Source: a bacterium (lineage in GTDB: Bacteria; Bacillota; Clostridia; Oscillospirales; CAG-272). Taken from it: 64,000 nt of DNA. The stretch lies in NCBI GenBank assembly GCA_963627065.1, contig CAVGAA010000001.1, forward strand, positions 71,628 to 135,627, read 5' to 3'. This document shows, piece by piece, positions 5,406-41,427 of the stretch (its first letter is position 1; the number at the start of each line of letters is the position of its first letter). The translations under genes and the position numbers were made by a program. Below the pieces are notes generated by a model. That model was not told the origin of the DNA. It made no database searches and saw only the letters and a program-made list of their open reading frames with translations.

Positions 5406-6143
5406 TCATTTATTATCATCCGCCGATGCCGTTTTCTTTTTGTGACGGCGAGCGGTTTTGATACGGGCATTTGTAACGACTTCTGCGGATTTTTTCTGCA
5501 GGGCGAGTGCTATGGAAATGGCAGGGAAGAGTCTGACCGAGAATGAGAGATTGACATCTGCAGTTGTTTCCGTCCCCGTAAAATTCGGGCGAATGCTAAT
5601 GTCGCTCTTATCGTAGTTGATATTGACAAAATTTTCGTCAAGCCAATCGAGAATCAAGGTAGCCCCTGCCGAAACACCGCCCCAGACAAGTGCGGTTGTT
5701 GCCGCATTGTCACTGCCGACCGAAATATTCATGTGAACGGCACGAAGAGAGAGCTTTCCTTTTGCGACACGGTAAAATTCCTTGACCAATGCGAGAATTG
5801 CAGACAGTTTGTCACGCAAATCGACACCGTCCAGTTTTCCGCTGTGAATGAGTGCCATTTGACGCTCATGCAGTTTGGCATAATAGGCATCTTCTTTTTT
5901 CTGCCTTCGCAATTCCGCTTTCAAAGCCCGTTTCGGATTTTTGCAGAATTTTTTCGGGAGTTCTTCTCCGTCACTGTCGTCATATAGCACAAACGGAATG
6001 CCGAGCAGGGTAATTTCCACCTGAATGCAATCTTTGAATTTCACTTTCAGACGGGCGATTTTTGCCTTTCCGAGCAGAAGAATCAAAAGGCAGAGTAACA
6101 GAACACCGGCAACCGCTATGAGTGCAATCATCCAATCTGCCAT
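5406..6143 (-). CDS. DUF2953-like (YtfI-like) membrane-anchored sporulation-associated protein
   Basis: N-terminal TM segment (MIALIAVAGVLLLCLLILLL). Its position immediately upstream of ytfJ matches the Bacillus ytfI-ytfJ arrangement. Confidence 0.55.
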   Translation of the reverse strand: MADWMIALIAVAGVLLLCLLILLLGKAKIARLKVKFKDCIQVEITLLGIPFVLYDDSDGEELPKKFCKNPKRALKAELRRQKKEDAYYAKLHERQMALIHSGKLDGVDLRDKLSAILALVKEFYRVAKGKLSLRAVHMNISVGSDNAATTALVWGGVSAGATLILDWLDENFVNINYDKSDISIRPNFTGTETTADVNLSFSVRLFPAISIALALQKKSAEVVTNARIKTARRHKKKTASADDNK

Positions 6144-6145
6144 AT

Positions 6146-6928
6146 TTATTCTCCTTCCGAATCGTTTTTCGCTTCCGAATTTTCGCTTTCGACACCGGTT
6201 TGCGTTGCATCTTCGAAAATCAAATTTCCGTCATCGTCCTCTTCCACCGGTCTGTAATCTTGGGCATCCTGCGGTAACGGTTCGTCTGCATCGATTTCGG
6301 TACTGTCGCCCAAATCGAGTTCCAACTGCTCGGTGCTTTCGCTTTGCATCTGTGCTTGCGTGGATGCACTCAAAGCCTCGGTCTGCGGTAATTCGTCCAG
6401 CGAATTGATACCGAACACTCGCAAAAACTTGTCCGTTGTGCTGTAAAGCATCGGTCGTCCGGGGGCTTCCAAACGCCCCACCGCCTCAATCAAGCCTTTG
6501 TCAATGAGGGACGTAACCGCATAGGAACTGTCAACGCCTCTGACATCGTCCACAAAAGTTCTTGTAACCGGTTGGTTGTACGCAACCACCGCCAGTGCCT
6601 CCATTGTCGATGCCGATAAGTTTCCGCCACGCCGAATGCCGAGTGCCTCACGGATATAGGGGGCATATTTTTCTTTTGTCGCCAATTGGCAGGCGGTCGG
6701 ATATTGCAGGAGCGATATACCGTGACAAGAATCTTCCGCCTCGTACCTTTTTGCAATTTCACGAACCAGATTTTTTACATCTTTGACCGTGAGAGACAGT
6801 ACCTCCGCCAGTTTGTCATATCGCATCGGATGTCCTGCCGCAAAGAGGATTGCCTCAATTGCCTGCTCGGTTTCTTCTGCCGTTTCGAGTGGTGCGAGAA
6901 TCGGTTCGGACTGCTTTTTTTCTTCCAT
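6146..6928 (-). CDS. scpB: Segregation and condensation protein B with an acidic C-terminal tail of about 70 aa
   Basis: AIEAILFAAGHPM...MEALAVVAYNQPVTRTFVDDVRGVDS...GRLEAPGRPMLYSTTDKFL. Confidence 0.9.
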   Translation of the reverse strand: MEEKKQSEPILAPLETAEETEQAIEAILFAAGHPMRYDKLAEVLSLTVKDVKNLVREIAKRYEAEDSCHGISLLQYPTACQLATKEKYAPYIREALGIRRGGNLSASTMEALAVVAYNQPVTRTFVDDVRGVDSSYAVTSLIDKGLIEAVGRLEAPGRPMLYSTTDKFLRVFGINSLDELPQTEALSASTQAQMQSESTEQLELDLGDSTEIDADEPLPQDAQDYRPVEEDDDGNLIFEDATQTGVESENSEAKNDSEGE

Positions 6929-6931
6929 ATA

Positions 6932-8065
6932 TTATTGTCCCTGTCCTTTCTTTTCCATTCGAATGGTTTCTTTTGCCATATGTTCCACAATTTCGTTCAT
7001 GTCGAGTCCCAAATCGTCGAGCATATCGTTTTCGTCTTCCGACAATTTGTCTTCGAGCATTGCCTCGACACGTTCTTCGGCATCGAGGTCGCTGTCGTCT
7101 GTGGGAATTGAATCGTCAAGCGAAAGTTCGTTTTCTTTTGCGAGTCTGCGTTCTTCGGCACGTTTTGCACGTTCTTCTGCTCTCTGCCGTTTCTTTTCTT
7201 CAAGTTTCCGCTCACGTAGAATTCTTCTCTGCTCTCTGTGCATTTCAGCTTTCGAGGAGAGGGGAATTGCCTCTTTCGAGTGGTCGACTTTCGGCTTTTT
7301 CTGCCGTTCGGCTTCTTCCTCTTCGGCGGATTTTTCATTGACCGAAAAGCAGGTGTTCGTTCCGTGAACCGCATCGAGGTATTCGCCCTCGTCAATCAAG
7401 ATTTTGCGGACCTTGACGAGTTCCAGAATTCCGAGAAAGATTGCAATCAGGTCGGGGAGCGATACCGCATCCGAGAGCAATTCTTTCATCGAAGTTTCTT
7501 TTTTCTTTTCCATGCGGTGCAGAATGCCGACGATCTTGATTTCCACCGGAACAATCGGTTTTGCAATCATCGGAGCGAAAACGGCTTTTTCCGCTTTCGG
7601 TCGGCTTTCGTTGTTCGCAATGATACGGCGGACTGCCAAGCAAAGACTTGTGACCTGCTGGTCGGCGACATAGGTCGTGTCGACCGTAACCTCGTCCGTG
7701 TCCTTGACCATTCTTCCGCTGTAAATTTTGTAAAGTTCCGCCATTTTGACGGCGGCTTCTTTTGCTTGTTGATAGCGTTGCAGGGCTTCCTGCAAGTCCA
7801 TACGGGGATCTTTTTCTTCCTCTTGCGGACGGGGCAGGAGCATTTTGCTCTTAATACGGACCAATTCACTTGCCATAACGATAAATTCGCCGGCAAGTTC
7901 CATGTTCATTTCCTGTGCCGCATCGATGTAAGCGAGGTACTGATCGCAAATCAGAGAAATGGGCAAATCGGTGATCGGCACTTTATTCTTTTGTATGAGC
8001 GAGAGCAACAGGTCGAGCGGACCTTCAAAGTTAAATTGCTCTAACTTATAAGTGACACCTTCCAT
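6932..8065 (-). CDS. scpA: Segregation and condensation protein A with a charged C-terminal extension of about 130 aa
   Basis: FEGPLDLLLSLIQKNKVPITDLPISLICDQYLAY...FIVMASELVRIKSKMLLP, followed by a K/E/R/D-rich tail. Confidence 0.9.
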   Translation of the reverse strand: MEGVTYKLEQFNFEGPLDLLLSLIQKNKVPITDLPISLICDQYLAYIDAAQEMNMELAGEFIVMASELVRIKSKMLLPRPQEEEKDPRMDLQEALQRYQQAKEAAVKMAELYKIYSGRMVKDTDEVTVDTTYVADQQVTSLCLAVRRIIANNESRPKAEKAVFAPMIAKPIVPVEIKIVGILHRMEKKKETSMKELLSDAVSLPDLIAIFLGILELVKVRKILIDEGEYLDAVHGTNTCFSVNEKSAEEEEAERQKKPKVDHSKEAIPLSSKAEMHREQRRILRERKLEEKKRQRAEERAKRAEERRLAKENELSLDDSIPTDDSDLDAEERVEAMLEDKLSEDENDMLDDLGLDMNEIVEHMAKETIRMEKKGQGQ

Positions 8066-32391: not shown

Positions 32392-32680
32392 ATCTCTTTA
32401 ACTGAAAGTATGCTCCGTTTTAGCATTAGATTGAAGGTAGAGCCACATTCTGTGGAGACGGTAGACGAAGCCTTAAAAGCCGTTGTTTACCGCATACGGA
32501 AGTCGCTATTCAGAGGTCTTCCAAATCATTACAAGTGATAACGGATTGGAGTTTGCACATCTCGCCGAACTTAAAAAAATCGGTATCGGAGTCTACTTTA
32601 CCCACCCATACACGTCCTGCGAAAAACGGACCGTCGAGTGCCACAACAAGACGTTGAGACGGTTTATACCGAAGAAAAAA
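32392..32680 (+). pseudogene. IS30-family transposase remnant (central/C-terminal catalytic part only, frameshifted)
   Basis: Two frames carry ISLTESMLRFSIRLKVEPHSVETVDEALKAV, then FQIITSDNGLEFAHLAELKKIGIGVYFTHPYTSCEKRTVECHNKTLRRFIPKKK. These resemble the IS30 segments LTLvERkTRf and SITsDNGsEF...YFahPYssWERGtNEN...RRfiPK. The N-terminal half is absent. Confidence 0.65.
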
Positions 32681-32789
32681 GAGCATTGCGAATTATTGCA
32701 TTTTGCTATTGCAATTTCTACATTATTTAATAAGATAATGATAATTTTTTTATTTTCTTGCTGTGATAAAATAATGGAGGGCTATTTTG

Positions 32790-33809
32790 ATGAAACGAAA
32801 CCCGCAAAAAGAGTTTTATTTTCAATGGCATTTTTTGAATTCGTGTAATTTACGTTGCAAACATTGCTATCAAGAAGATTACAGATGTCAGGACATGGAT
32901 TTTGAAACTTTAAAAAAAATCGCTGATGAAATAATTAAAGCATTAATTCGATGGGATATGTACGGTCGCATATCTTTGACTGGAGGGGAACCTTTTTTAA
33001 GTAAGCACTTACATCGGTTGCTTGAGTATTTGAATCAATCGGAAAGGATCATTTCAATTGATATACTTACCAACGGAACGCTAATTACAGAATCTGATAT
33101 TAAAAAAATGAAAAGTTATAAAAAGTTACATCAAATACAAATTTCGCTTGATGGTGGTACAGCAGAAATTCATGATAGCGTTCGTGGAGCAGGTAATTTT
33201 GAAAAAGCATTACAAGGTATTAGGTTATTGAAGCAATCCGGTGTTGAAGTTGCTTTGATGTATACCTTGCAACAACTAAATAAGGATGGATATAACGATT
33301 TCATAGATGTTGCTTTGAGAGAAAATGTTGATGCAATTACGATTGAACGAGTTACCCCGTGCGGTCAAAGTGCGTTGCAAGACTTAATACCTGCAGATGA
33401 AATTAGAAGAATCTATACGGAAATTACTCGAAGAGCCAATGGTATGTCATCAAAACCAGTCATTAGACGAGCTCGTCCATTATGGATTAATACAATGTGT
33501 GATAACATTCGCTCTGATTGTAATATTGGGGGCTTTTGTCCCGTTGGGTTTACAGCTTTAGCAATACTCCATGACGGAACCGTCCTTCCTTGTCGAAGAA
33601 TGGAAATTCCATTAGGAAACATTTTAACGGATGGCTTGTTTAAAATTTGGTATTCAAGTGAAGTTCTTTGGAAGATACGTGACAAAAATAATTTAAAAGG
33701 TAAATGTCATGGATGCGAACATCTTTCTGCGTGTGGGGGATGCAGGGCTGTGGCATATGCAACAACTGGTGATTATTTGGAGGAGGATCCGCAATGCTGG
33801 AAAAACTAA
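32790..33809 (+). CDS. Radical SAM / SPASM-domain peptide-modifying maturase
   Basis: CNLRCKHC (CX3CX2C) and SLTGGEPF. The C-terminal auxiliary-cluster motifs are CPVGFTALAILHDGTVLPC (CX12GX4C) and CHGCEHLSACGGC...C. GGAGGG SD is 8 nt upstream. Confidence 0.85.
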   Translation: MKRNPQKEFYFQWHFLNSCNLRCKHCYQEDYRCQDMDFETLKKIADEIIKALIRWDMYGRISLTGGEPFLSKHLHRLLEYLNQSERIISIDILTNGTLITESDIKKMKSYKKLHQIQISLDGGTAEIHDSVRGAGNFEKALQGIRLLKQSGVEVALMYTLQQLNKDGYNDFIDVALRENVDAITIERVTPCGQSALQDLIPADEIRRIYTEITRRANGMSSKPVIRRARPLWINTMCDNIRSDCNIGGFCPVGFTALAILHDGTVLPCRRMEIPLGNILTDGLFKIWYSSEVLWKIRDKNNLKGKCHGCEHLSACGGCRAVAYATTGDYLEEDPQCWKN

Positions 33810-34078
33810 GTAATGTCTATCAATTAAATAATAATATTATTATAAAAGGTATCAATGACAAGTATTGGGCATTGGATACAAACACAGGTGCACAATTCCG
33901 ATTGAATGAATTATCATTTGATATTTTGTCTTTGACAAACGGTAATAACTCAGTTGATTACATCGTTGAACAGCAATTTGCAAAATATTCTGTAAAGAAA
34001 GAACTCCTAATTCGTGATATTCTTTCTTTTCTTGAAACAGCCTTGAATAAGGGGCTTATTTCAAAGAAAAAGGAATAA
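33794..34078 (+). CDS. PqqD-family peptide chaperone (RiPP recognition element)
   Basis: 94 aa: FRLNELSFDILSLTNGNNSVDYIVEQQFAKYSV...ILSFLETALNKGLI, a PqqD-like pattern. AGGAGG SD lies upstream and the gene overlaps the maturase gene by 16 nt. Confidence 0.8.
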   Translation: MLEKLSNVYQLNNNIIIKGINDKYWALDTNTGAQFRLNELSFDILSLTNGNNSVDYIVEQQFAKYSVKKELLIRDILSFLETALNKGLISKKKE

Positions 34079-34084
34079 TGATAT

Positions 34085-35275
34085 ATGCTTATAGATGCAC
34101 ACAGCCATTTAGGCACAAATGATTTGTGTACTGATGGAAAATCATTTAGGTATGATTTATCTAATACAGCAGATGAATACATTAAATACATGGATGCGAA
34201 TGGTATAAATAAAGCTGTGATACTTCCAATACCAGGAAACAATTACGACTCTGTAAAATCTAATGACGTTCTTTATTCGGCCAGTCTTAAGTATCCTAAC
34301 AGATTTATACCATTTTGCAAGTTGGACAGTTTTTTACCAACTAACATTATGTGCAAGGGGTTTTATGGGGCCAAGTATCATATGGTGTATGAATCTTATC
34401 CAAAAACAACCTTAAGTCAATATTATAAACTTTTGGAATACTATGGATTCCCTTTAATTATTCATGCAAAGTATCCTGAAAAGGGGAAACAAATTTGTGA
34501 TATCCTCGAAGTGGCACCAAATTTAAAGATAATACTTGCACATATGGGACGAGGTCATATTTATACTGATGAAATGATTCCAGATTTGTTAAATCAATTT
34601 AAGAATGTTCCGAATTTATTTTTTGAATCCTCAACTGTGGGTAGATCAAGAATGATTGAACTTGCTTGCGAGACTATTGGTGCTGATCGTCTTATGTACG
34701 GTTCAGACTATCCGTTTGGCAAGGCATGGTTCAGAGACTCATTTATTCCTGATGATGAAATGTCCGTAATATCAAAAGCGAATATTACAGTTGAAGAAAA
34801 AGAGTTAATTCTTCATGGAACAATCGAAAAGATTATTAAGAATTGCGATGAGAAGAGAAATGGTTTTTATGTGCGCCCTTATTTAAAGACTGATAAAAAT
34901 GAATTTGAAGCACTATTAGCATCACTCTCAAAATCTGATAGGAAGTTGCTTGCAATTGATAAAAAAATGTCTGTAATACACGATTGTATGAGAAATGAGC
35001 GGCATATTTATTTAGCTATTAATGCCGGGAAGATAGTCGGTTTCTTCAGGGAAAGCGGACGTTCTAATCATACTTTTATGTTAGAGGAATTTGCGGTTTT
35101 TCCTCAGTATCGTGGGCATGGTTTTTCTAAGTTAATGTTGCAATACTATACTGTATTTTTTGAAAAATCCTCTGTAAAGACATTATCGTCGAATGTCACC
35201 ATGAATCATATTTTGCCGATGTTTTCCTTTGTGCCAGTTTATGGAAAAGAAACGATAAATTGGATTCGAGCGTAG
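34085..35275 (+). CDS. Fusion protein: amidohydrolase_2 (TIM-barrel metal hydrolase) N-domain plus GNAT acetyltransferase C-domain
   Basis: LIDAHSHLG, ILAHMGRG and MYGSDYPF in the first 260 aa or so. The GNAT motif A, FAVFPQYRGHGFSKLML, lies near the C-terminus. Confidence 0.7.
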   Translation: MLIDAHSHLGTNDLCTDGKSFRYDLSNTADEYIKYMDANGINKAVILPIPGNNYDSVKSNDVLYSASLKYPNRFIPFCKLDSFLPTNIMCKGFYGAKYHMVYESYPKTTLSQYYKLLEYYGFPLIIHAKYPEKGKQICDILEVAPNLKIILAHMGRGHIYTDEMIPDLLNQFKNVPNLFFESSTVGRSRMIELACETIGADRLMYGSDYPFGKAWFRDSFIPDDEMSVISKANITVEEKELILHGTIEKIIKNCDEKRNGFYVRPYLKTDKNEFEALLASLSKSDRKLLAIDKKMSVIHDCMRNERHIYLAINAGKIVGFFRESGRSNHTFMLEEFAVFPQYRGHGFSKLMLQYYTVFFEKSSVKTLSSNVTMNHILPMFSFVPVYGKETINWIRA

Positions 35276-35280
35276 AAGCA

Positions 35281-36204
35281 ATGATTTTTAATAACGATAT
35301 TCTAAAAATCACCAATAATAAACGGGATTTTTATTCTCCAATTATAAGTGCGTTAGTTGAAACTAAATCTATAGAATTCTTTTTATCAAAAGGATTTCAT
35401 CTGTTTGCGTTACCAATTATGAATGATGCAGTTGCTACGAAAGAAAAAACGATTCAATTTAATTTTGACCATCAAAATATCGAATTAAATAGCAGTCAAG
35501 CAATGCGAATCTCAGCTTTATCTGCCTTTTATAATCAAGTTTTTTCAGTGAGTAAATGTTTTAGAAATGAAAAAAACGTTGATTTTTCGCATTTATCGGA
35601 ATTCACGATGTTAGAAGCAGAGTTTTCAATCGAAAAGGAGACTGATATTTTCGATTTGATAGAGAATTATTTAGCGTTTATTATTGACTGGTTTGACACA
35701 TTTATTGTTGAACAAAATTTGACAGATGTTTTTAAGCATCGTACTGTTTCGTTTCCCATAGAGCAAATTAATTATGATTTGTTGCTAAAAAGTGAGAAAA
35801 TCAAAGGCAAGAAGTTAATTTTTGATCATTTTGATTTTTGCGATATTGATGTAAGTGCGGATATCGATAAACCCATCTTTATTGTTAATTATCCGTGCGT
35901 TGGTTCTTGGCGGGCCAAACGCAAAGATAACTTACATGCTTTTTTGTACAACTTGATTCTACCATGCGGCTTTGGAGAATTAGTTGAGTGTTCAATTAGG
36001 GAAATCGATTATGCTTTTTATAAGCAGAAATTTGATTACTTAGGAATGTCCGAGTCTTATTCTTGGTACTTAGATGCTATGCGTATTAATCACGGTATAA
36101 AAGCTGGCTTTGGTCTTGGTTTAGAGCGACTTGCAGCTTGGCTTATGGATTTAAAAGCTATTGGCGATCAATTAATCTTTCCAAGATTGCCAGGAGGACA
36201 ATAA
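35281..36204 (+). CDS. Stand-alone class II (IIb, Asp/Asn/Lys-RS-like) aminoacyl-tRNA-synthetase catalytic core without an anticodon-binding domain
   Basis: Motif 2-like VSKCFRNEKNVDFSHLSEFTMLEAEF and motif 3-like GFGLGLERLAAWLMDL...LIFPRLPGG. At about 307 aa it is too short to hold the N-terminal OB fold. Alternative TTG start at 35260. Confidence 0.7.
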   Translation: MIFNNDILKITNNKRDFYSPIISALVETKSIEFFLSKGFHLFALPIMNDAVATKEKTIQFNFDHQNIELNSSQAMRISALSAFYNQVFSVSKCFRNEKNVDFSHLSEFTMLEAEFSIEKETDIFDLIENYLAFIIDWFDTFIVEQNLTDVFKHRTVSFPIEQINYDLLLKSEKIKGKKLIFDHFDFCDIDVSADIDKPIFIVNYPCVGSWRAKRKDNLHAFLYNLILPCGFGELVECSIREIDYAFYKQKFDYLGMSESYSWYLDAMRINHGIKAGFGLGLERLAAWLMDLKAIGDQLIFPRLPGGQ

Positions 36205-36206
36205 AA

Positions 36207-37010
36207 ATGTCAATTGAATTAGAAAGATGCACTATGGCCTTACATAGGATGGTTTATGAAATGAATCGTAAGGGCATAGAGCAATCAAGAATTACTAAAT
36301 GTGCTACGCAATTACTAATGAGCGGAGTTTCCCAAAATTCAATATCGACGGAAATTGTTCAAAAATGTATTGAAACTCAAAACAATGATGGCGGTTGGGT
36401 TGCAGTTGTTGACACAATATGGAATGCAAAGTTTTTATCATTTTTTAGTAAAACCAACGAAAATATTGTTCATGCATATCGATATTTAAATGATAACAAA
36501 GTGGATTTTGGTTTTGGAAGGTCTAAACGTGATATAGGTAGAATTCCGGTAACTGGTATCGCTTATTACTTACATCCTCAATTGGCAACTTTGGATGGAT
36601 TAAGATGGTTGGAAAATCTTTGGATTTCAGAAAAGAATGGACTAACATATAAAGCAGCTTATACATTGATGGCTTTCAAACGCACAAATTATAAGCCGTT
36701 AAATATTGGGGTTATAGAAGAAGCTGTTCTTTGGTTATTGTCTCAGCAGGAAAAAGATGGTGGCTTTTCTCCTTGGAAACATCATCCTGTAGGGACCAAT
36801 GTTTATTGTACGGCTCTTTCGTTGATTGGCTTACTTCAATACAATGAGTTTATTCCTCAAGCTAATGCTGCTATTGAGGCAGCTTATCAGTATATTTATA
36901 AAAATCAGTTAATCAATGGACTGTGGCCGTATCATGAATTAGAAGATGGTGGGGCATGGGGAATGCAAGCTATGTTTCAATATGAAAGCGAGTACGCACA
37001 TGAGTTCTAA
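36207..37010 (+). CDS. Prenyltransferase / squalene-oxidase-repeat (alpha-alpha toroid) protein
   Basis: Repeats QNNDGGWVAV, QQEKDGGFSPW and NGLWPYHELEDGGAWG. GGAGG SD precedes the ATG at 36207. Confidence 0.65.
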   Translation: MSIELERCTMALHRMVYEMNRKGIEQSRITKCATQLLMSGVSQNSISTEIVQKCIETQNNDGGWVAVVDTIWNAKFLSFFSKTNENIVHAYRYLNDNKVDFGFGRSKRDIGRIPVTGIAYYLHPQLATLDGLRWLENLWISEKNGLTYKAAYTLMAFKRTNYKPLNIGVIEEAVLWLLSQQEKDGGFSPWKHHPVGTNVYCTALSLIGLLQYNEFIPQANAAIEAAYQYIYKNQLINGLWPYHELEDGGAWGMQAMFQYESEYAHEF

Positions 37011-38253
37011 AAAATCCATTTTATTGGTATACCCTAAACCGCAATTTGATAAGAATCCGCGATTCGGTTTTTCAATTCAGCTGATGCAATTAGCTACAAT
37101 TTTGAAGCAAAAGTATAAAGTATTTTTTTTGGATTATTCTTATCTCGATTTTGATGAAAGCAAATTTCGCTTATATTTGTTAAATAATAACATATCGCAT
37201 ATTGTCGTTGAATTTGATTCTTTTTCACTAAAAAGATCTGAGAATTATGAAAATGCACTCTTATTACTTAATATTGCAAGGGAAAGAAAAATAATTTCAG
37301 TTGCTTTTGGTAATGATTGCATAATGGATAATTCAAATAGCATTTGTGCGGATTACATTATTAGAGAAGATCCATTATTAAAAATCGGGAAAATCTTTAA
37401 TGTTTTTTCTGATGAGTTGACGGAAATGGAATATGATGTTATTCCATTTCCAGATCGCGAATTGCTGAAAACTAATCCGTTTTTCTTAAAGAATTCTAAT
37501 TCTACACTTATTCGTACATCTGAAGGCTGTTTAAATACATGTTCTTTTTGTCAGCGTCGGGGGTGGCAAAAGAAATATAAAGCACATAATATTGAATATG
37601 TTATACGAGAATTTGAATATTTAAAGGACCACAATTACCAAAATGTATGGGTTGCAGATGATAATTTTACCTTCGATTTAAGTCGAGCAAAGAAAATTCT
37701 TTCAATTCTTTCGCAACAAAAATTAACTGTTGGAATGAATCTAGCGATTAGTAGCTGGACAAGAATAGATGAAGATTTATTACAGTTGGCACAACAGGCA
37801 AATGTAAAAATAATTAGTATGGGTATAGAATCTGCTAATTATGAAATATTGGACTTTTATAACAAAAAAATAGATTTACAAAGGACTAAACAGTTAATCG
37901 AATATGCAGATCTGCTTGGTATTTATACTATTGGAAATTTTATCATAGGAGCACCTATGGAAACAATGGTAACTATTGAAAATACCTTTGACTATATAAT
38001 GTCCACTAAATTAGATCAAATTAACATTAAAACTTTAGATTATATGCTCGGGTCAGTATTGTATGAAAATTTGCCAAAAAAGGTAGAGCACCACTATTTT
38101 GCATGCTCGGAAAATGGGTTGTGCAGTTTTTCACTAAATGAATTATCGAAAATTAAGAAAGATTTTCTTACAAGATTTAATTTGGAGAGGCAAGATTTTC
38201 GAATGGAAAAAATAAAAAAATTTGGACTTCCATATATTCCTTTAAAGATATAA
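37000..38253 (+). CDS. B12-binding-domain radical SAM enzyme (class B type)
   Basis: The N-terminal Rossmann-like segment (ILLVYPKPQ...KVFFLDYSY) is followed by RTSEGCLNTCSFCQ (CX3CX2C). It overlaps the previous gene by 11 nt. Confidence 0.75.
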   Translation: MSSKKSILLVYPKPQFDKNPRFGFSIQLMQLATILKQKYKVFFLDYSYLDFDESKFRLYLLNNNISHIVVEFDSFSLKRSENYENALLLLNIARERKIISVAFGNDCIMDNSNSICADYIIREDPLLKIGKIFNVFSDELTEMEYDVIPFPDRELLKTNPFFLKNSNSTLIRTSEGCLNTCSFCQRRGWQKKYKAHNIEYVIREFEYLKDHNYQNVWVADDNFTFDLSRAKKILSILSQQKLTVGMNLAISSWTRIDEDLLQLAQQANVKIISMGIESANYEILDFYNKKIDLQRTKQLIEYADLLGIYTIGNFIIGAPMETMVTIENTFDYIMSTKLDQINIKTLDYMLGSVLYENLPKKVEHHYFACSENGLCSFSLNELSKIKKDFLTRFNLERQDFRMEKIKKFGLPYIPLKI

Positions 38254-38254
38254 T

Positions 38255-39532
38255 ATGAATTATTGGATTTTGGGGTTAGGTGCTGTTGCGCAATGTTTTT
38301 TAAAACTTTTATGTGCTAACGAATCAATAGATGCTTCACATGTATATTGCATCGAGCCTGATTGCAAAAAAGTCTCAATTTTTGTAAAATTAGGTTTTAT
38401 TAAAAAAAACTTTATATGCAATGCGTTAAATAGATATAATTATGCAACGGTTTTACAATCATTGATTCCAAAGGATTATTGTATCGATTTTTCTAGTTTA
38501 ACCAATTCTAAAGATTTACTAGTTTTTTGTGCGAAAAAGAAAGTTCATTACCTTTCCGTAGCAGATACTTTTTGGAAAGATGAGTCAGAGAATTTCGGAG
38601 CAAGCCACATGGATTATTTGAATATAATTTCTTCTTTTCCTAATAATCCAACGTCGATTATACAATTTGGTATGAATCCAGGATTGGTTTCATCATTTGC
38701 AAAGCAAAGCATAAAAATGCTCTGGTCAATCAATACTTTGACAGAATCAAAAAATGCCATTAAGCAGCAGGATGAGTTTTGTATTGCAAAAAAAGCATCA
38801 ATCTTAAATATAAATAAAATTTGTATCTGTGATTGGGACATGCAACATTCCAATCTCAATATTGAGAAAAGCACTATTTACTCGACATGGAACATTGATG
38901 CTTTTGTGAATGAAGCAACAACTCGTCCGGAATATCCTGCAGGCATTCCCAATGACGACAACATGGATGAGATAGTAGATTTTAATCTTAACTATCGAAG
39001 GAAAAATGTTCCTGCTTATGCAGCTATGCATGAATTAGTTTCACCTATAAACAGTACTAATGGCTTTATTATGACGCATGAAGAAACATACTCTATTGCA
39101 CATTATTTGTCGTATAGAGAATCTGATAAAATAACTTATAGGCCTGAAGTTATATTTGTATACAAACCATGTAATGAATCAATATTTTCTATTAAGAATC
39201 TATTGAAGGCCGGTTTTGATAGATTAGATTCATTTCAAAAACACATTTTAGTTCCTAGAGAAATCATTTCAGGTGGAGAGTATGTAGGGGTAACATTATA
39301 TCAAAATGATATACCTATATTTTACTTCGGAAATGATTGCGAAAAAAGTGGTATAGAAGGCTCTAATATAACTGTATTTCAAGTCGCTGTTTCGTGTTTT
39401 GCTGCATTGAAATACATAGAAACGCATGCGGATTTTGGAATACTTTTCCCGGAAGATGTTGATGATGATTTTATTATCGATATTGTTCGTCAATTTATGA
39501 GGTTGAATTATGGATTTATTAAAAAAGCATAA
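38255..39532 (+). CDS. Saccharopine-dehydrogenase / homospermidine-synthase-like NAD(P)-binding protein
   Basis: N-terminal ILGLGAVAQ Rossmann loop. FGMNPGLVSSFAKQSI resembles the GANPGLVSHFVKQA motif recalled for homospermidine synthases. It starts 1 nt after the preceding stop. Confidence 0.5.
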   Translation: MNYWILGLGAVAQCFLKLLCANESIDASHVYCIEPDCKKVSIFVKLGFIKKNFICNALNRYNYATVLQSLIPKDYCIDFSSLTNSKDLLVFCAKKKVHYLSVADTFWKDESENFGASHMDYLNIISSFPNNPTSIIQFGMNPGLVSSFAKQSIKMLWSINTLTESKNAIKQQDEFCIAKKASILNINKICICDWDMQHSNLNIEKSTIYSTWNIDAFVNEATTRPEYPAGIPNDDNMDEIVDFNLNYRRKNVPAYAAMHELVSPINSTNGFIMTHEETYSIAHYLSYRESDKITYRPEVIFVYKPCNESIFSIKNLLKAGFDRLDSFQKHILVPREIISGGEYVGVTLYQNDIPIFYFGNDCEKSGIEGSNITVFQVAVSCFAALKYIETHADFGILFPEDVDDDFIIDIVRQFMRLNYGFIKKA

Positions 39533-39743
39533 ATGTTCTCATTGCAGAGGAGCTGGTAAAATATTTTGTTACGAATGTAGGGGAACTGGAGGAATTAGCA
39601 ATTTTGAATTGCATGATCATGAAGGAAATTCATCGCTTTTTGATGGTGAATTATTAGACCGGTTGTGTTCCATATGTTTTGGCACTGGCAAAATTGTTTG
39701 TAAAGTTTGTAACGGAACAGGAAAAAGTTGTAGACTGTGTTAA
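39510..39743 (+). CDS. Small DnaJ-CR-type zinc-finger protein (4x CxxCxGxG, 77 aa)
   Basis: CSHCRGAG, CYECRGTG, CSICFGTG and CKVCNGTG, plus a terminal CRLC. GAGG SD lies upstream and the gene overlaps the previous gene by 23 nt. Confidence 0.7.
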   Translation: MDLLKKHKCSHCRGAGKIFCYECRGTGGISNFELHDHEGNSSLFDGELLDRLCSICFGTGKIVCKVCNGTGKSCRLC

Positions 39744-39782: not shown

Positions 39783-39911
39783 ATGGAAAAAATGTCTTAT
39801 AGTGCTCCCGTCCTTGAAGAGGTTACTGAGATGGTCTTCACAAAAGAAGTTTGGGAAGAATTTAACAGTGGTCGCTGGTGCTTTGGTTGCTCTAATTGCA
39901 ATTGCAACTAA
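39783..39911 (+). CDS. Candidate RiPP precursor peptide (42 aa), not in the ORF track
   Basis: AAAGGAG lies 7 nt before the ATG. Own translation: MEKMSYSAPVLEEVTEMVFTKEVWEEFNSGRWCFGCSNCNCN*. It has an acidic leader-like N-terminus and four Cys in the last 10 residues, and is the last gene of the island operon. Confidence 0.7.
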   Translation: MEKMSYSAPVLEEVTEMVFTKEVWEEFNSGRWCFGCSNCNCN

Positions 39912-39937
39912 AGTAGAATTTTAAGATTTAGGACGGG

Positions 39938-39990
39938 GATGCCATTCCTGATATATAGAGATATGTATCGGGGATGGTATCTTTGCATTT
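39938..39990 (+). terminator. Possible operon terminator after the precursor ORF
   Basis: GATGCCAT (39938-39945) pairs with ATGGTATC (39974-39981) with one G-U pair, followed by TTTGCATTTT. The loop is long, so this call is weak. Confidence 0.3.
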
Positions 39991-40889
39991 TACTTTTTCT
40001 CTTTGTACAACCGGTATTGCACGGGACTCATACCGTTCAGATTCATTTAAATTCTTTCGTTGTTGTAGTACGCAATGTACTCCTCCAATTTCTCAATGAA
40101 TCCCCGAGGGGATTCAAATTTTTCGCCGTAAAACATCTCAACTTTCAGCCGTCCGAAGAAATTTTCCATGACACTGTTGTCAAGGCAATTCCCTTTCCGT
40201 GACATACTCTGCGTGATGTGATGCTCGGCGAGAAGCCTCTGGTACTCGGGGTGCTGGTACTGCCAGCCTTGGTCGGAATGGAACAGCGGTCTTGCATCCG
40301 GCGGGAGTTTTTCGAACAATCCTGCCAACATATCCTTGACTTGTTGCAGGTTGGGACTCAGGGAAATAGTGTAGGCGAGGACCTCACGGTTAAATAAATC
40401 GAGGACGAGCGAGAGGTAGATTCTTACATCGAAGACCTTAAACTCCGTGATGTCTGTTGTTATCTTTTCGAACGGCTTATCTGCGTGAAAATCCCTGTTC
40501 AGCACGTTGTCGGCAGTCTTTCCGATCGTGCCTTTGTAGGAATTATAACTGCCGTTTTTGCTCTGTTTTCCCTTCAAACCGAGCATTTTCATCAGTTTCA
40601 GGACGGTTTTGTGGTTGATTTTGAAGTTTTCTGACCGCATGACAGCCAAGATTCGTCTGTAACCGTATCTGCCTTTGTTGTCGTCGAAGATTTTCTTGAT
40701 TGCCGTTTTTTCCTCTTGGTACTTGTCCTTGCCTTTTTGTTTCAGGTAATAGTAGAACGTACTCCTTGCCATTCCGGAAACAGCCAGCAGATCTTTCAGC
40801 GGAAACCATTGCCTCAGCTCAGCAGGTAAGGTCACATCCGGAAGCTCCGAGTACACCGAATAAACGGAATCTTTCCCGTCGGTCGTCAC
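39990..40889 (-). pseudogene. IS3-family transposase OrfB (integrase core) with a premature stop
   Basis: RSTFYYY, GYRRI, HSDQGWQY and GNCLDNSVMENFFG motifs. TAA at 40049-40047 interrupts ...YYNNERI*MNLNGMSPVQYRLYKEKK*, cutting off the conserved SPxxYR tail. Confidence 0.75.
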
Positions 40890-40934
40890 GAAACTCCTTG
40901 TTCGTAGCTACGGCTACGACCTGCGTCCTTTCAT

Positions 40935-41427
40935 TTAGACCGGCAGAAAATCTTCTCGCCCCTCGTCGCACTCTCTGCTTTCGGGTGTGACCTTTGAACG
41001 CTTTTTCCCGTTCTTTTGCTCGTCCGCTCGAACTAAGGCATCTAATTTTTTTAGGTATTCGTTTTCGATTCTGAGACGCAGATTTTCCGATGCCATTGCT
41101 TTGATTTCGTCCTCGGTCTGAGGGACATAAATCTCGCCCGATTTGCCTTGTTTCTTGCTTTCCTCAATAGTTGATTCTTTGATCTTTTTGAGATCCTTGA
41201 AAGCCTTTTCTCTCCGTTCTTCCATGAGACCTTTTTCGCCTTCCTCTTTGAATATGCGTTCCCATCGCTTAACCGTTTCGGTGTACCGACCTTCGCAACC
41301 TTTGGAATTTTTCCAATATTTGCGGACGGTTTCCTTGTAGCCGAGTCCGTGTTCCAGCATATCCATTATAACACGGATTTTGAAATTTGTCGAGTACTTT
41401 TTGTTTTTTTCTTTTGCCTTTTTTCAT
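40935..41427 (-). pseudogene. IS3-family OrfA (HTH) with a 1-nt frameshift just after its start codon
   Basis: ATG at 41427 follows AAGGAG but is +1 relative to the frame encoding KKAKEKNKKYSTNFKIRVIMDMLEHGLGYKETVRKY. The shift lies in the A6 run after the ATG. Confidence 0.7.

Follow-up and report, generated by a model that had tools for sequence, protein, structure and literature searches.

A conserved alpha6/alpha6 toroid protein accompanies a Cys-rich peptide in a radical SAM maturation cassette of anaerobic bacteria

What is a small protein with the repeats of terpene cyclases and protein prenyltransferases doing among radical S-adenosylmethionine (SAM) enzymes and a short, Cys-rich peptide? 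The question is raised by a 64,000-nucleotide stretch of a Clostridia genome (Oscillospirales, CAG-272; assembly GCA_963627065.1, contig CAVGAA010000001.1, positions 71,628 to 135,627; hereafter the window). A 267-aa protein (the toroid protein; 36207-37010, plus strand) is encoded there on the same strand as an open reading frame (ORF; 39783-39911) for the 42-aa peptide MEKMSYSAPVLEEVTEMVFTKEVWEEFNSGRWCFGCSNCNCN. An earlier note on this DNA drew attention to QxxDGG(W/F) repeats in the protein and to the C39-N40-C41-N42 end of the peptide, which puts one Cys four residues from the C-terminus, and suggested Cys prenylation of the CaaX kind or, failing that, a LanC-like catalyst or a scaffold. 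The repeats (QNNDGGW at residues 58-64, QQEKDGGFSPW at 180-190 and EDGGAWG at 246-252) and the Cys at -4 are read directly from the sequence as that note described them. An AGGAGG Shine-Dalgarno sequence lies 9 nucleotides upstream of the toroid ATG; a longer ORF with a TTG start at 36138 is not supported, because homologues start at the ATG position. The peptide gene has an AAGGAG Shine-Dalgarno sequence upstream and a terminator-like hairpin (39936-39983, plus strand, recognised from the sequence) that closes the operon downstream.

The association of toroid and peptide extends far beyond this genome. Related cassettes occur in ~130 loci of at least nine phyla of anaerobes, so the pairing is not due to chance, and the earlier placement of the protein in a radical SAM cluster for ribosomally synthesised peptides with post-translational modifications (RiPPs) holds. 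The core set comprises a radical SAM/SPASM enzyme, a PqqD protein, the precursor peptide, an Amidohydro_2 protein (with or without a GNAT domain), the toroid protein and a second radical SAM enzyme; the combination of radical SAM/SPASM enzyme, PqqD-type RiPP recognition element (RRE) and adjacent short precursor with a conserved core marks the cassette as RiPP-type. Nearly all of the 36 genome loci found through the toroid, where enough sequence is available, contain a small ORF ending in WCFGC[T/S]NCNCN directly before the stop codon. Scanning metagenomes with the back-translated core retrieved 88 loci, and in the 10 peptide-found loci whose sequence continues for 8 kb or more downstream of the peptide, toroid and second radical SAM enzyme are both encoded without exception. 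The Cys at -4 is kept in all orthologous precursors detected in the toroid-found genome loci, including the sole core variant, NCFGCSNCSCR (L029, 201-488), from a termite-gut Planctomycetaceae metagenome-assembled genome. Leaders differ from locus to locus, in net charge (-11 to +4) as well as in sequence; the 11-residue core does not vary. The toroid protein is an obligatory, highly conserved member of this radical SAM peptide-maturation cassette.

More than 160 toroid homologues of ~265 aa were found at ~44-62% identity (120 among the matches listed). They are carried by Selenomonadaceae, Lachnospiraceae, Synergistaceae, Syntrophomonas, Desulfobacterota, Planctomycetota, Aminicenantes, Omnitrophota, Nitrospirota, Bacteroidales, Fibrobacter and Riflebacteria, all of them anaerobes. 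Bengtsoniella intestinalis BP47G (L023) is a carrier of the cassette that can be cultivated. With a median identity of 48.5% to the window protein, the toroid ranks second in conservation within the cassette, after the radical SAM/SPASM enzyme (58%) and ahead of the second radical SAM enzyme (43%), the amidohydrolase (39%), PqqD (35%) and an aminoacyl-tRNA synthetase (aaRS)-like protein (29%).

The gene for the second radical SAM enzyme stands immediately 3' of the toroid gene in every related locus. The distance from toroid stop to enzyme start lies between -117 and +21 nucleotides in 61 of 63 distinct loci (commonest values -8, -4 and +3), and in the window the two genes overlap by 11 nucleotides; the toroid is translationally coupled to this enzyme. 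An AlphaFold2 (AF2) model of the latter (predicted local distance difference test score, pLDDT, 92) places a Rossmann-like domain N-terminal to the radical SAM core, and its leading Foldseek matches are AprD4, TsrM, MgmA and OxsB, followed by MiaB/RimO. The B12-binding family PF02310 is matched neither by the enzyme nor by any orthologue among the matches listed, and the N-terminal domain lacks a three-Cys auxiliary-cluster motif. AprD4 has been cited as a member of the class-B-like architecture that does not bind cobalamin (PMC12931638). The label 'B12-dependent' was accordingly downgraded for the second enzyme, given the lack of PF02310 matches in the listed orthologues and AprD4 as best structural match. 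When 1.84 billion cluster representatives were searched with a profile, the best 150 matches included no fusion of toroid and radical SAM enzyme.

To what fold does the protein belong? Among Pfam families only TED_complement (PF07678) exceeds its gathering threshold (28 versus 22 bits), with a match that spans just profile positions 63-132 of 312, while SQHop_cyclase_C (23.1 bits), Prenyltrans (PF00432; 16.5 bits, cut-off 26.5) and SQHop_cyclase_N (16 bits) remain below theirs. Each of these four models matches 35-38 of 38 orthologues; TED_complement matches all 38 and PF00432 matches 37 at E<=1 (best 3.6e-8), and this PF00432 similarity is generic repeat similarity, comparable to that of the TED and squalene-hopene cyclase models. 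Against the Protein Data Bank (PDB), the family profile retrieves squalene-hopene cyclase at E 3e-10, via repeat matches only, and no prenyltransferase or LanC at E<=1. An AF2 model built from the alignment of 38 sequences (pLDDT 96; predicted template modelling score, pTM, 0.92) contains 12 helices and predicts one complete alpha6/alpha6 barrel, in agreement with the toroid that the earlier note expected from the repeats. Foldseek against the PDB places class II terpene cyclase barrels first (drimenyl diphosphate synthase, small squalene-hopene cyclase-like enzymes, squalene-hopene cyclase and MstE, TM ~0.7; for 8zg5, 8pak, 1sqc and 6sbb, E 6e-7 to 1e-4 and query TM 0.68-0.73), followed by TED/C3d domains, and its top 50 include neither a prenyltransferase beta chain nor a LanC structure. 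Homologues are publicly annotated as 'terpene cyclase/mutase family protein', 'prenyltransferase/squalene oxidase repeat-containing protein', 'squalene cyclase' or 'hypothetical'. Membership in the terpenoid-cyclase/prenyltransferase/TED superfamily is supported for this stand-alone, cytoplasmic protein.

The conserved residues of the toroid are gathered on one side of the barrel. Thirty positions are invariant among the 38 orthologues, which come from many phyla: K22, R28, D61-G62-G63, T70, G104, R105, R108, D109, R112-I113-P114, W139, E142, T147-Y148-K149-A150, W176, Q181, G185, P189-W190, H193-P194, G238, W240, H243 and G248; E244, E246, D247, C201-T202 and W251 are at least 90% conserved. 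All but one of the 30 fall in the connections from odd to even helices or in the first turns of the even (inner) helices of the AF2 model, and the opposite face holds none (binomial tail 3e-9, for segments defined after the data were seen). The resulting mouth is charged and aromatic. Mouth and peptide core stay invariant, the core being near-identical across the ~130 loci, while the leader varies. In distant relatives at 20-30% identity K149 is still invariant, R28, G104, W139, Y148 and H243 are at least 90% conserved and the R-D-x-x-R-I-P loop is mostly retained, while C201 and H193 are lost. A Tyr-Lys pair, a His, several Arg and an acidic cluster read like an acid-base or ligand-binding site and not like a zinc-thiolate centre. 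The toroid encoded beside the variant precursor in L029 keeps nearly all of the invariant residues and has Ser in place of V115.

The same profile search delimits a wider family. It returned 57 clusters at E<1e-30, all single-domain and of ~260-300 aa or fragments thereof, the close members other than fragments measuring ~250-300 aa, and beyond these a tail of full-length relatives at 20-30% identity. These relatives belong to sister systems with other precursors. L133, L136, L141 and L142 each encode a toroid, a Cys-tailed peptide, a radical SAM/SPASM enzyme and PqqD. The gene order in L133/L134 is radical SAM/SPASM, PqqD, peptide (tail ...VCRQCSSCHGCK), toroid, AsnB-like, glycosyltransferase, B12-radical SAM and radical SAM, and that in L142 is radical SAM/SPASM, PqqD, peptide (tail ...WCRGCSACHGCR), toroid and AsnB-like. 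L136 (6042-12145) comprises three tandem peptides (tails ...VVCCHCQCT, ...ACSSCTCNCGD and ...VCGGCTCGCGTA), PqqD, toroid, GNAT, a split radical SAM/SPASM enzyme, an APH-like kinase and another radical SAM enzyme, and L141 has peptide (tail ...SPCGCSG), PqqD and toroid plus a divergent radical SAM/SPASM gene. In L138 toroid and Cys-tailed peptide are both present, on a sequence too short to judge radical SAM/SPASM and PqqD. The smallest unit, in L139 (563-2922), consists of three genes placed between thrS and infC-rpmI-rplT: toroid, an N-terminally extended radical SAM/SPASM enzyme of 418 aa, and the peptide MKRKPVKKLSIKKVSTTKLVKKVKSGKCTCCGGCN (tail ...KCTCCGGCN). Because L139 encodes no second radical SAM enzyme, the toroid does not require one; the constant partners of the family are a radical SAM/SPASM enzyme and a peptide with a Cys-rich tail, usually behind a Y-x-x-P leader. 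The sister toroid gene adjoins either the PqqD gene or the peptide gene.

Two side observations concern these sister loci. NifS/NifU-like genes lie near L136, on the opposite strand. Sister systems whose cores are free of Asn encode an AsnB-type, asparagine-synthase-like enzyme (L133, 7592-9280; L142, 8858-10567), whereas the main family has an asparaginyl-tRNA synthetase (AsnRS)/AsnA-like protein instead. ATP-dependent carboxylate activation may be a recurring feature of toroid-family pathways.

What, then, would the toroid do? We propose, as a tentative reading held at a little below even confidence, that it is a dedicated maturation factor for peptides with Cys-rich tails, independent of zinc and handling the tail together with the radical SAM enzymes. 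What its presumed substrates share without exception is a Cys-rich tail beside a free C-terminus, and nothing else. This tail, with its free carboxylate, would dock in the polar funnel of the toroid (R28, R105/R108/D109/R112, Y148-K149, H193 and H243-E244-x-E246-D247), the carboxylate being bound by Arg and Lys, and acid-base chemistry by the Tyr148-Lys149 pair and a His (His243) would take the place of zinc-thiolate chemistry. The toroid would perform or steer a polar step on intermediates delivered by the radical chemistry of the SPASM enzyme; candidates are a C-S bond-forming step, in which a thiol adds to an oxidised residue (imine or dehydro), or a beta-elimination. In the WCFGCTNCNCN subfamily it would act in complex with the coupled Rossmann-domain radical SAM enzyme. 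Such a role would parallel the division of labour between LanB and LanC, without zinc and by a mechanism distinct from that of LanC.

Several observations speak against this proposal. The clustering of the invariant residues into one pocket follows from helix topology and not from measured distances, and neither Pfam nor the family alignment reveals a recognisable cofactor, metal or nucleotide motif in the toroid. Net charges of toroid and peptide correlate weakly and positively (Spearman +0.32) and show no complementarity, which bears on bulk leader binding only; bulk electrostatic binding of an acidic leader by the conserved basic residues was rejected for this reason. Moreover, a non-catalytic binding role would also account for synteny and coupling, and such an adaptor is the main rival to a catalytic toroid. 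It would serve as a 'core RRE' that presents the reactive Cys-rich tail to the radical SAM enzymes, in a stoichiometric complex with the second of them in the WCFGC[T/S]NCNCN subfamily. The fact that the two genes overlap or abut in 61 of 63 loci, the position of the sister toroids beside PqqD or peptide genes, the lack of a cofactor motif and the TED/C3d relatives, which bind and do not catalyse, would all suit an adaptor. We nevertheless regard it as possible rather than probable, since 30 invariant residues on one face, mainly Arg, Lys, His, Asp, Glu and the Tyr-Lys pair, exceed what a docking surface usually needs, the mouth is kept across phyla and in part even at 20-30% identity, the toroid is better conserved than the second radical SAM enzyme it would serve, and leader recognition is already supplied by PqqD. 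A chaperone that delivers cobalamin or another cofactor to the downstream Rossmann-domain enzyme would likewise explain the strict adjacency and translational coupling to a class-B-like radical SAM enzyme, and eukaryotic cobalamin carriers contain an alpha6/alpha6 barrel domain, an analogy that may lend this idea some weight. It is improbable all the same: the toroid of L139 occurs without a second radical SAM enzyme, the radical SAM enzymes of L136 lack a B12-binding match, no transcobalamin or intrinsic-factor structure appears among the top Foldseek matches, and the listed orthologues of the second enzyme lack PF02310, while the best structural match of the enzyme itself is AprD4, which does not bind cobalamin (PMC12931638).

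The remaining alternatives assign the toroid to enzyme families of known chemistry. An S-prenyltransferase would bind an isoprenyl diphosphate and alkylate a Cys of the C-terminal tail, much as the earlier note envisaged. The beta subunits of farnesyl and geranylgeranyl transferases share the fold superfamily, the single alpha6/alpha6 barrel and the GGF/W-type repeats, 37 of the 38 members give sub-threshold to moderate PF00432 matches, and the beta-subunit funnel, to which the toroid is likened, accepts a Cys-containing C-terminal tail; the Arg/Lys/Tyr/His mouth with its H-E-x-E-D acidic cluster could by its composition bind a diphosphate with Mg, Cys -4 is invariant in the orthologous precursors, and farnesyl diphosphate is present in any cell. 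The protein is, however, very probably not a CaaX-type prenyltransferase. The C-N-C-N tail has no aliphatic a1 or a2 residue, and in the sister tails (...HGCK, ...NCGD, ...GCSG, ...GGCN) the Cys register shifts, the last Cys residues standing at -2/-5, -3/-5, -4/-6 or -2/-4. No Asp/Cys/His zinc triad is conserved in the 38 orthologues: C201, the sole semi-conserved Cys, is replaced in two of them (Tyr in P0101; Phe in P0109, from the intact cluster L006) and lost in distant relatives, so that it was rejected as a metal ligand, and position 198 is a mixture of Asp and Asn. An alpha subunit (PPTA repeats) is encoded neither in the window operon nor in 12 annotated contexts, and prenyl-diphosphate synthase, isoprenoid, Rce1-like and ICMT-like genes are absent from every context examined. 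Together with the PF00432 score below its gathering threshold and the missing beta chains among the top 50 structures, this leaves S-prenylation unlikely. We consider a canonical LanC-type cyclase, adding Cys thiols to dehydro-amino acids with the help of zinc, more unlikely still. LanC and LanCL proteins (PF05147) belong to the same structural clan, are alpha/alpha-toroid second catalysts of RiPP pathways that act on core Cys thiols, and have His, Arg, Asp and Tyr in a polar active site; the substrates here are Cys-rich, with one conserved Ser/Thr in the core, and the APH-like kinase of L136 could begin a dehydration. That kinase occurs in this one sister cluster only, however, and PF05147 matches the window protein not at all at E<=1 and three of 38 orthologues weakly (best 0.0066). 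The Cys-Cys-His zinc ligands are missing, there being no second conserved Cys, the barrel has 12 helices instead of the 14 (seven hairpins) of LanC, and the cassette holds no LanB-, LanM-, LanKC- or LanL-like dehydratase, the partners of the toroid being radical SAM enzymes where those of LanC are dehydratases. Membership of the LanC family thus falls, and the part of the earlier suggestion that may survive is the analogy, as a thiol-addition catalyst or a scaffold. Least credible, and practically dismissed here, is the reading that the protein is an isoprenoid enzyme, such as a class II terpene cyclase, which has no relation to the peptide and stands in the operon by accident. The best Foldseek and profile matches are indeed class II cyclase domains, and the beta/gamma domains of squalene-hopene cyclase, drimenyl diphosphate synthase and MstE are the closest structures and share QW-type repeats, but the toroid is one barrel of 267 aa and not a beta-gamma didomain, DxDD, the general-acid motif, is absent from its sequence and from the family consensus, and strict co-occurrence with the peptide (and not with isoprenoid genes) in ~130 loci of many phyla contradicts an accidental position. 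Thioester domains of alpha-2-macroglobulin and C3d (PF07678) offer the above-threshold Pfam match and a similar single-barrel size, from which the toroid differs in its partial profile coverage, in the absence of CGEQ, the thioester motif, from sequence and family alignment, and in being a stand-alone cytoplasmic protein.

At the level of the whole cassette, the closest likeness is to mycofactocin, PQQ and the uncharacterised ACGX-repeat system (TIGR04340), in which a short precursor, strongly conserved in its C-terminal core, is likewise accompanied by a SPASM maturase and a PqqD chaperone. The precursor family described here differs from theirs in its Y-x-x-P leader and CxxCxxCxC tail, and the accessory set in its toroid, Rossmann-domain radical SAM enzyme, Amidohydro_2 protein and aaRS-like or AsnB-like enzyme. 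Linked genes for a transporter, immunity or a dedicated protease are missing from most of the contexts examined; the one exception seen, in L004 and L005, is an ABC/RND/OEP efflux set that lies just upstream in divergent orientation. Near-invariance of a peptide core across phyla typifies peptide-derived cofactors (PQQ and mycofactocin, for instance) and not antibiotics. As a lead, the system resembles peptide-derived cofactor pathways more than bacteriocins, because its core is invariant across phyla, few export or immunity genes are linked and a carboxylate-activating enzyme recurs. Bolder, and doubtful as it stands, is the suggestion that the toroid founds a new class of zinc-independent toroid peptide-tailoring enzymes, and that the cassette product is an intracellular cofactor or metal-binding molecule of anaerobes and not an antibiotic; it draws on the invariance of the core in at least nine phyla, the lack of transporter, immunity and protease genes in most contexts and the restriction to anaerobes. 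Were it correct, this class would be an obligatory second catalyst beside the radical SAM/SPASM enzyme for peptides with Cys-rich tails.

Radical SAM RiPP clusters are well known; new here are the toroid as a fixed component and the precursor family within a radical SAM/SPASM-PqqD cassette of RiPP type. To our knowledge, neither an alpha/alpha-toroid as fixed partner of SPASM maturases nor a precursor family with a near-invariant 11-residue Cys/Asn core, ranging from Bacillota to Planctomycetota, Desulfobacterota and candidate phyla, has been known. NCBIfam release 20 (June 2026) has no model for the precursor peptide or the toroid, and nothing relevant emerged when the literature was searched for the core motif, for radical SAM or RiPP together with toroid or squalene cyclase, for ACGX and for RiPP together with aaRS-like proteins, most subscription papers being outside the coverage of these searches. 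If the toroid is catalytic, it would represent a second, mechanistically distinct use of the fold in peptide maturation, after LanC, and the three-gene system of the L139 type offers a tractable experimental entry point.

In the window the cassette is a single plus-strand operon that runs from the radical SAM/SPASM maturase gene to the precursor ORF. The maturase, its first product (340 aa; 32787-33809; Pfam Radical_SAM 1e-27, SPASM 2e-10), is found in nearly all related loci, and the nearest NCBIfam models (ACGX-system radical SAM, AhbD and SbtM) all score far under their cut-offs. The PqqD-family peptide chaperone, an RRE (94 aa; 33794-34078; Pfam PqqD 1e-9), is encoded beside the maturase in both related and sister loci. 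Next comes a fusion of Amidohydro_2, a metal-dependent hydrolase/decarboxylase fold, with GNAT (396 aa; 34085-35275; Pfam Amidohydro_2 4e-14, Acetyltransf_1/7 ~1e-5), of which the Amidohydro_2 gene is kept in related loci with the GNAT part present or absent. It is followed by a class II aaRS-like catalytic core of AsnRS/AsnA type (314 aa; 35260-36204; Pfam tRNA-synt_2 5e-30), which lacks an anticodon-binding domain, has AsnRS (2e-21) and archaeal AsnA as its PDB sequence matches and occurs in about two-thirds of related loci. The single-domain toroid, assigned from Pfam, AF2, Foldseek and synteny, precedes the class-B-like second radical SAM enzyme with its N-terminal Rossmann-like domain (417 aa; 37000-38253; Pfam Radical_SAM 7e-19). 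Between this and the precursor (leader motif Y-x-x-P...F-x-K-E-V-W-E-E-F, core WCFGCSNCNCN) lie genes for a saccharopine-dehydrogenase-like protein (425 aa; 38255-39532; Pfam Sacchrp_dh_NADP 3e-10) and a 77-aa protein with two CxxCxGxG zinc-finger pairs of DnaJ/BSD2 type (39510-39743; weak Pfam BSD2_CRD and DnaJ_CXXCXGXG matches). Across the ~130 related loci the former has no tblastn match and the latter is absent; these two genes (38255-39743) look like a lineage-specific addition to the cassette. In the closest loci, L051, L070 and L132, the peptide directly adjoins the core genes, without this pair.

The operon occupies a low-GC island, with a GC content of 0.32-0.35 across ~32-40 kb compared with ~0.44-0.51 over most of the remaining window. 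An IS3-type transposase gene (40047-40889, minus strand; rve and HTH_21 domain matches) marks its right edge. The low GC and the flanking traces of transposases suggest horizontal acquisition of the whole cassette. The IS3-type transposase region on the right extends over 40047-41366, and on the left, at 32483-32848, there is an apparent degenerate remnant of an IS30-type transposase, judged by eye and negative in Pfam.

Some related loci carry further genes. A 'long form' of the cassette, found in Desulfitibacter-type and other genomes (L001, 4094-14332), encodes before the toroid two ~450-aa proteins of no assigned family, a third radical SAM enzyme (513 aa) and a SAM methyltransferase, and after the second radical SAM enzyme a 399-aa protein of no assigned family, a 266-aa radical SAM protein and an FMN reductase. 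In the Selenomonadaceae loci L004 and L005 a creatininase-family gene and a SAM methyltransferase gene (6000-7315) stand immediately upstream of the radical SAM/SPASM gene. The creatininase family is that of the mycofactocin peptidase MftE, and both genes may form part of the cassette in these two loci.

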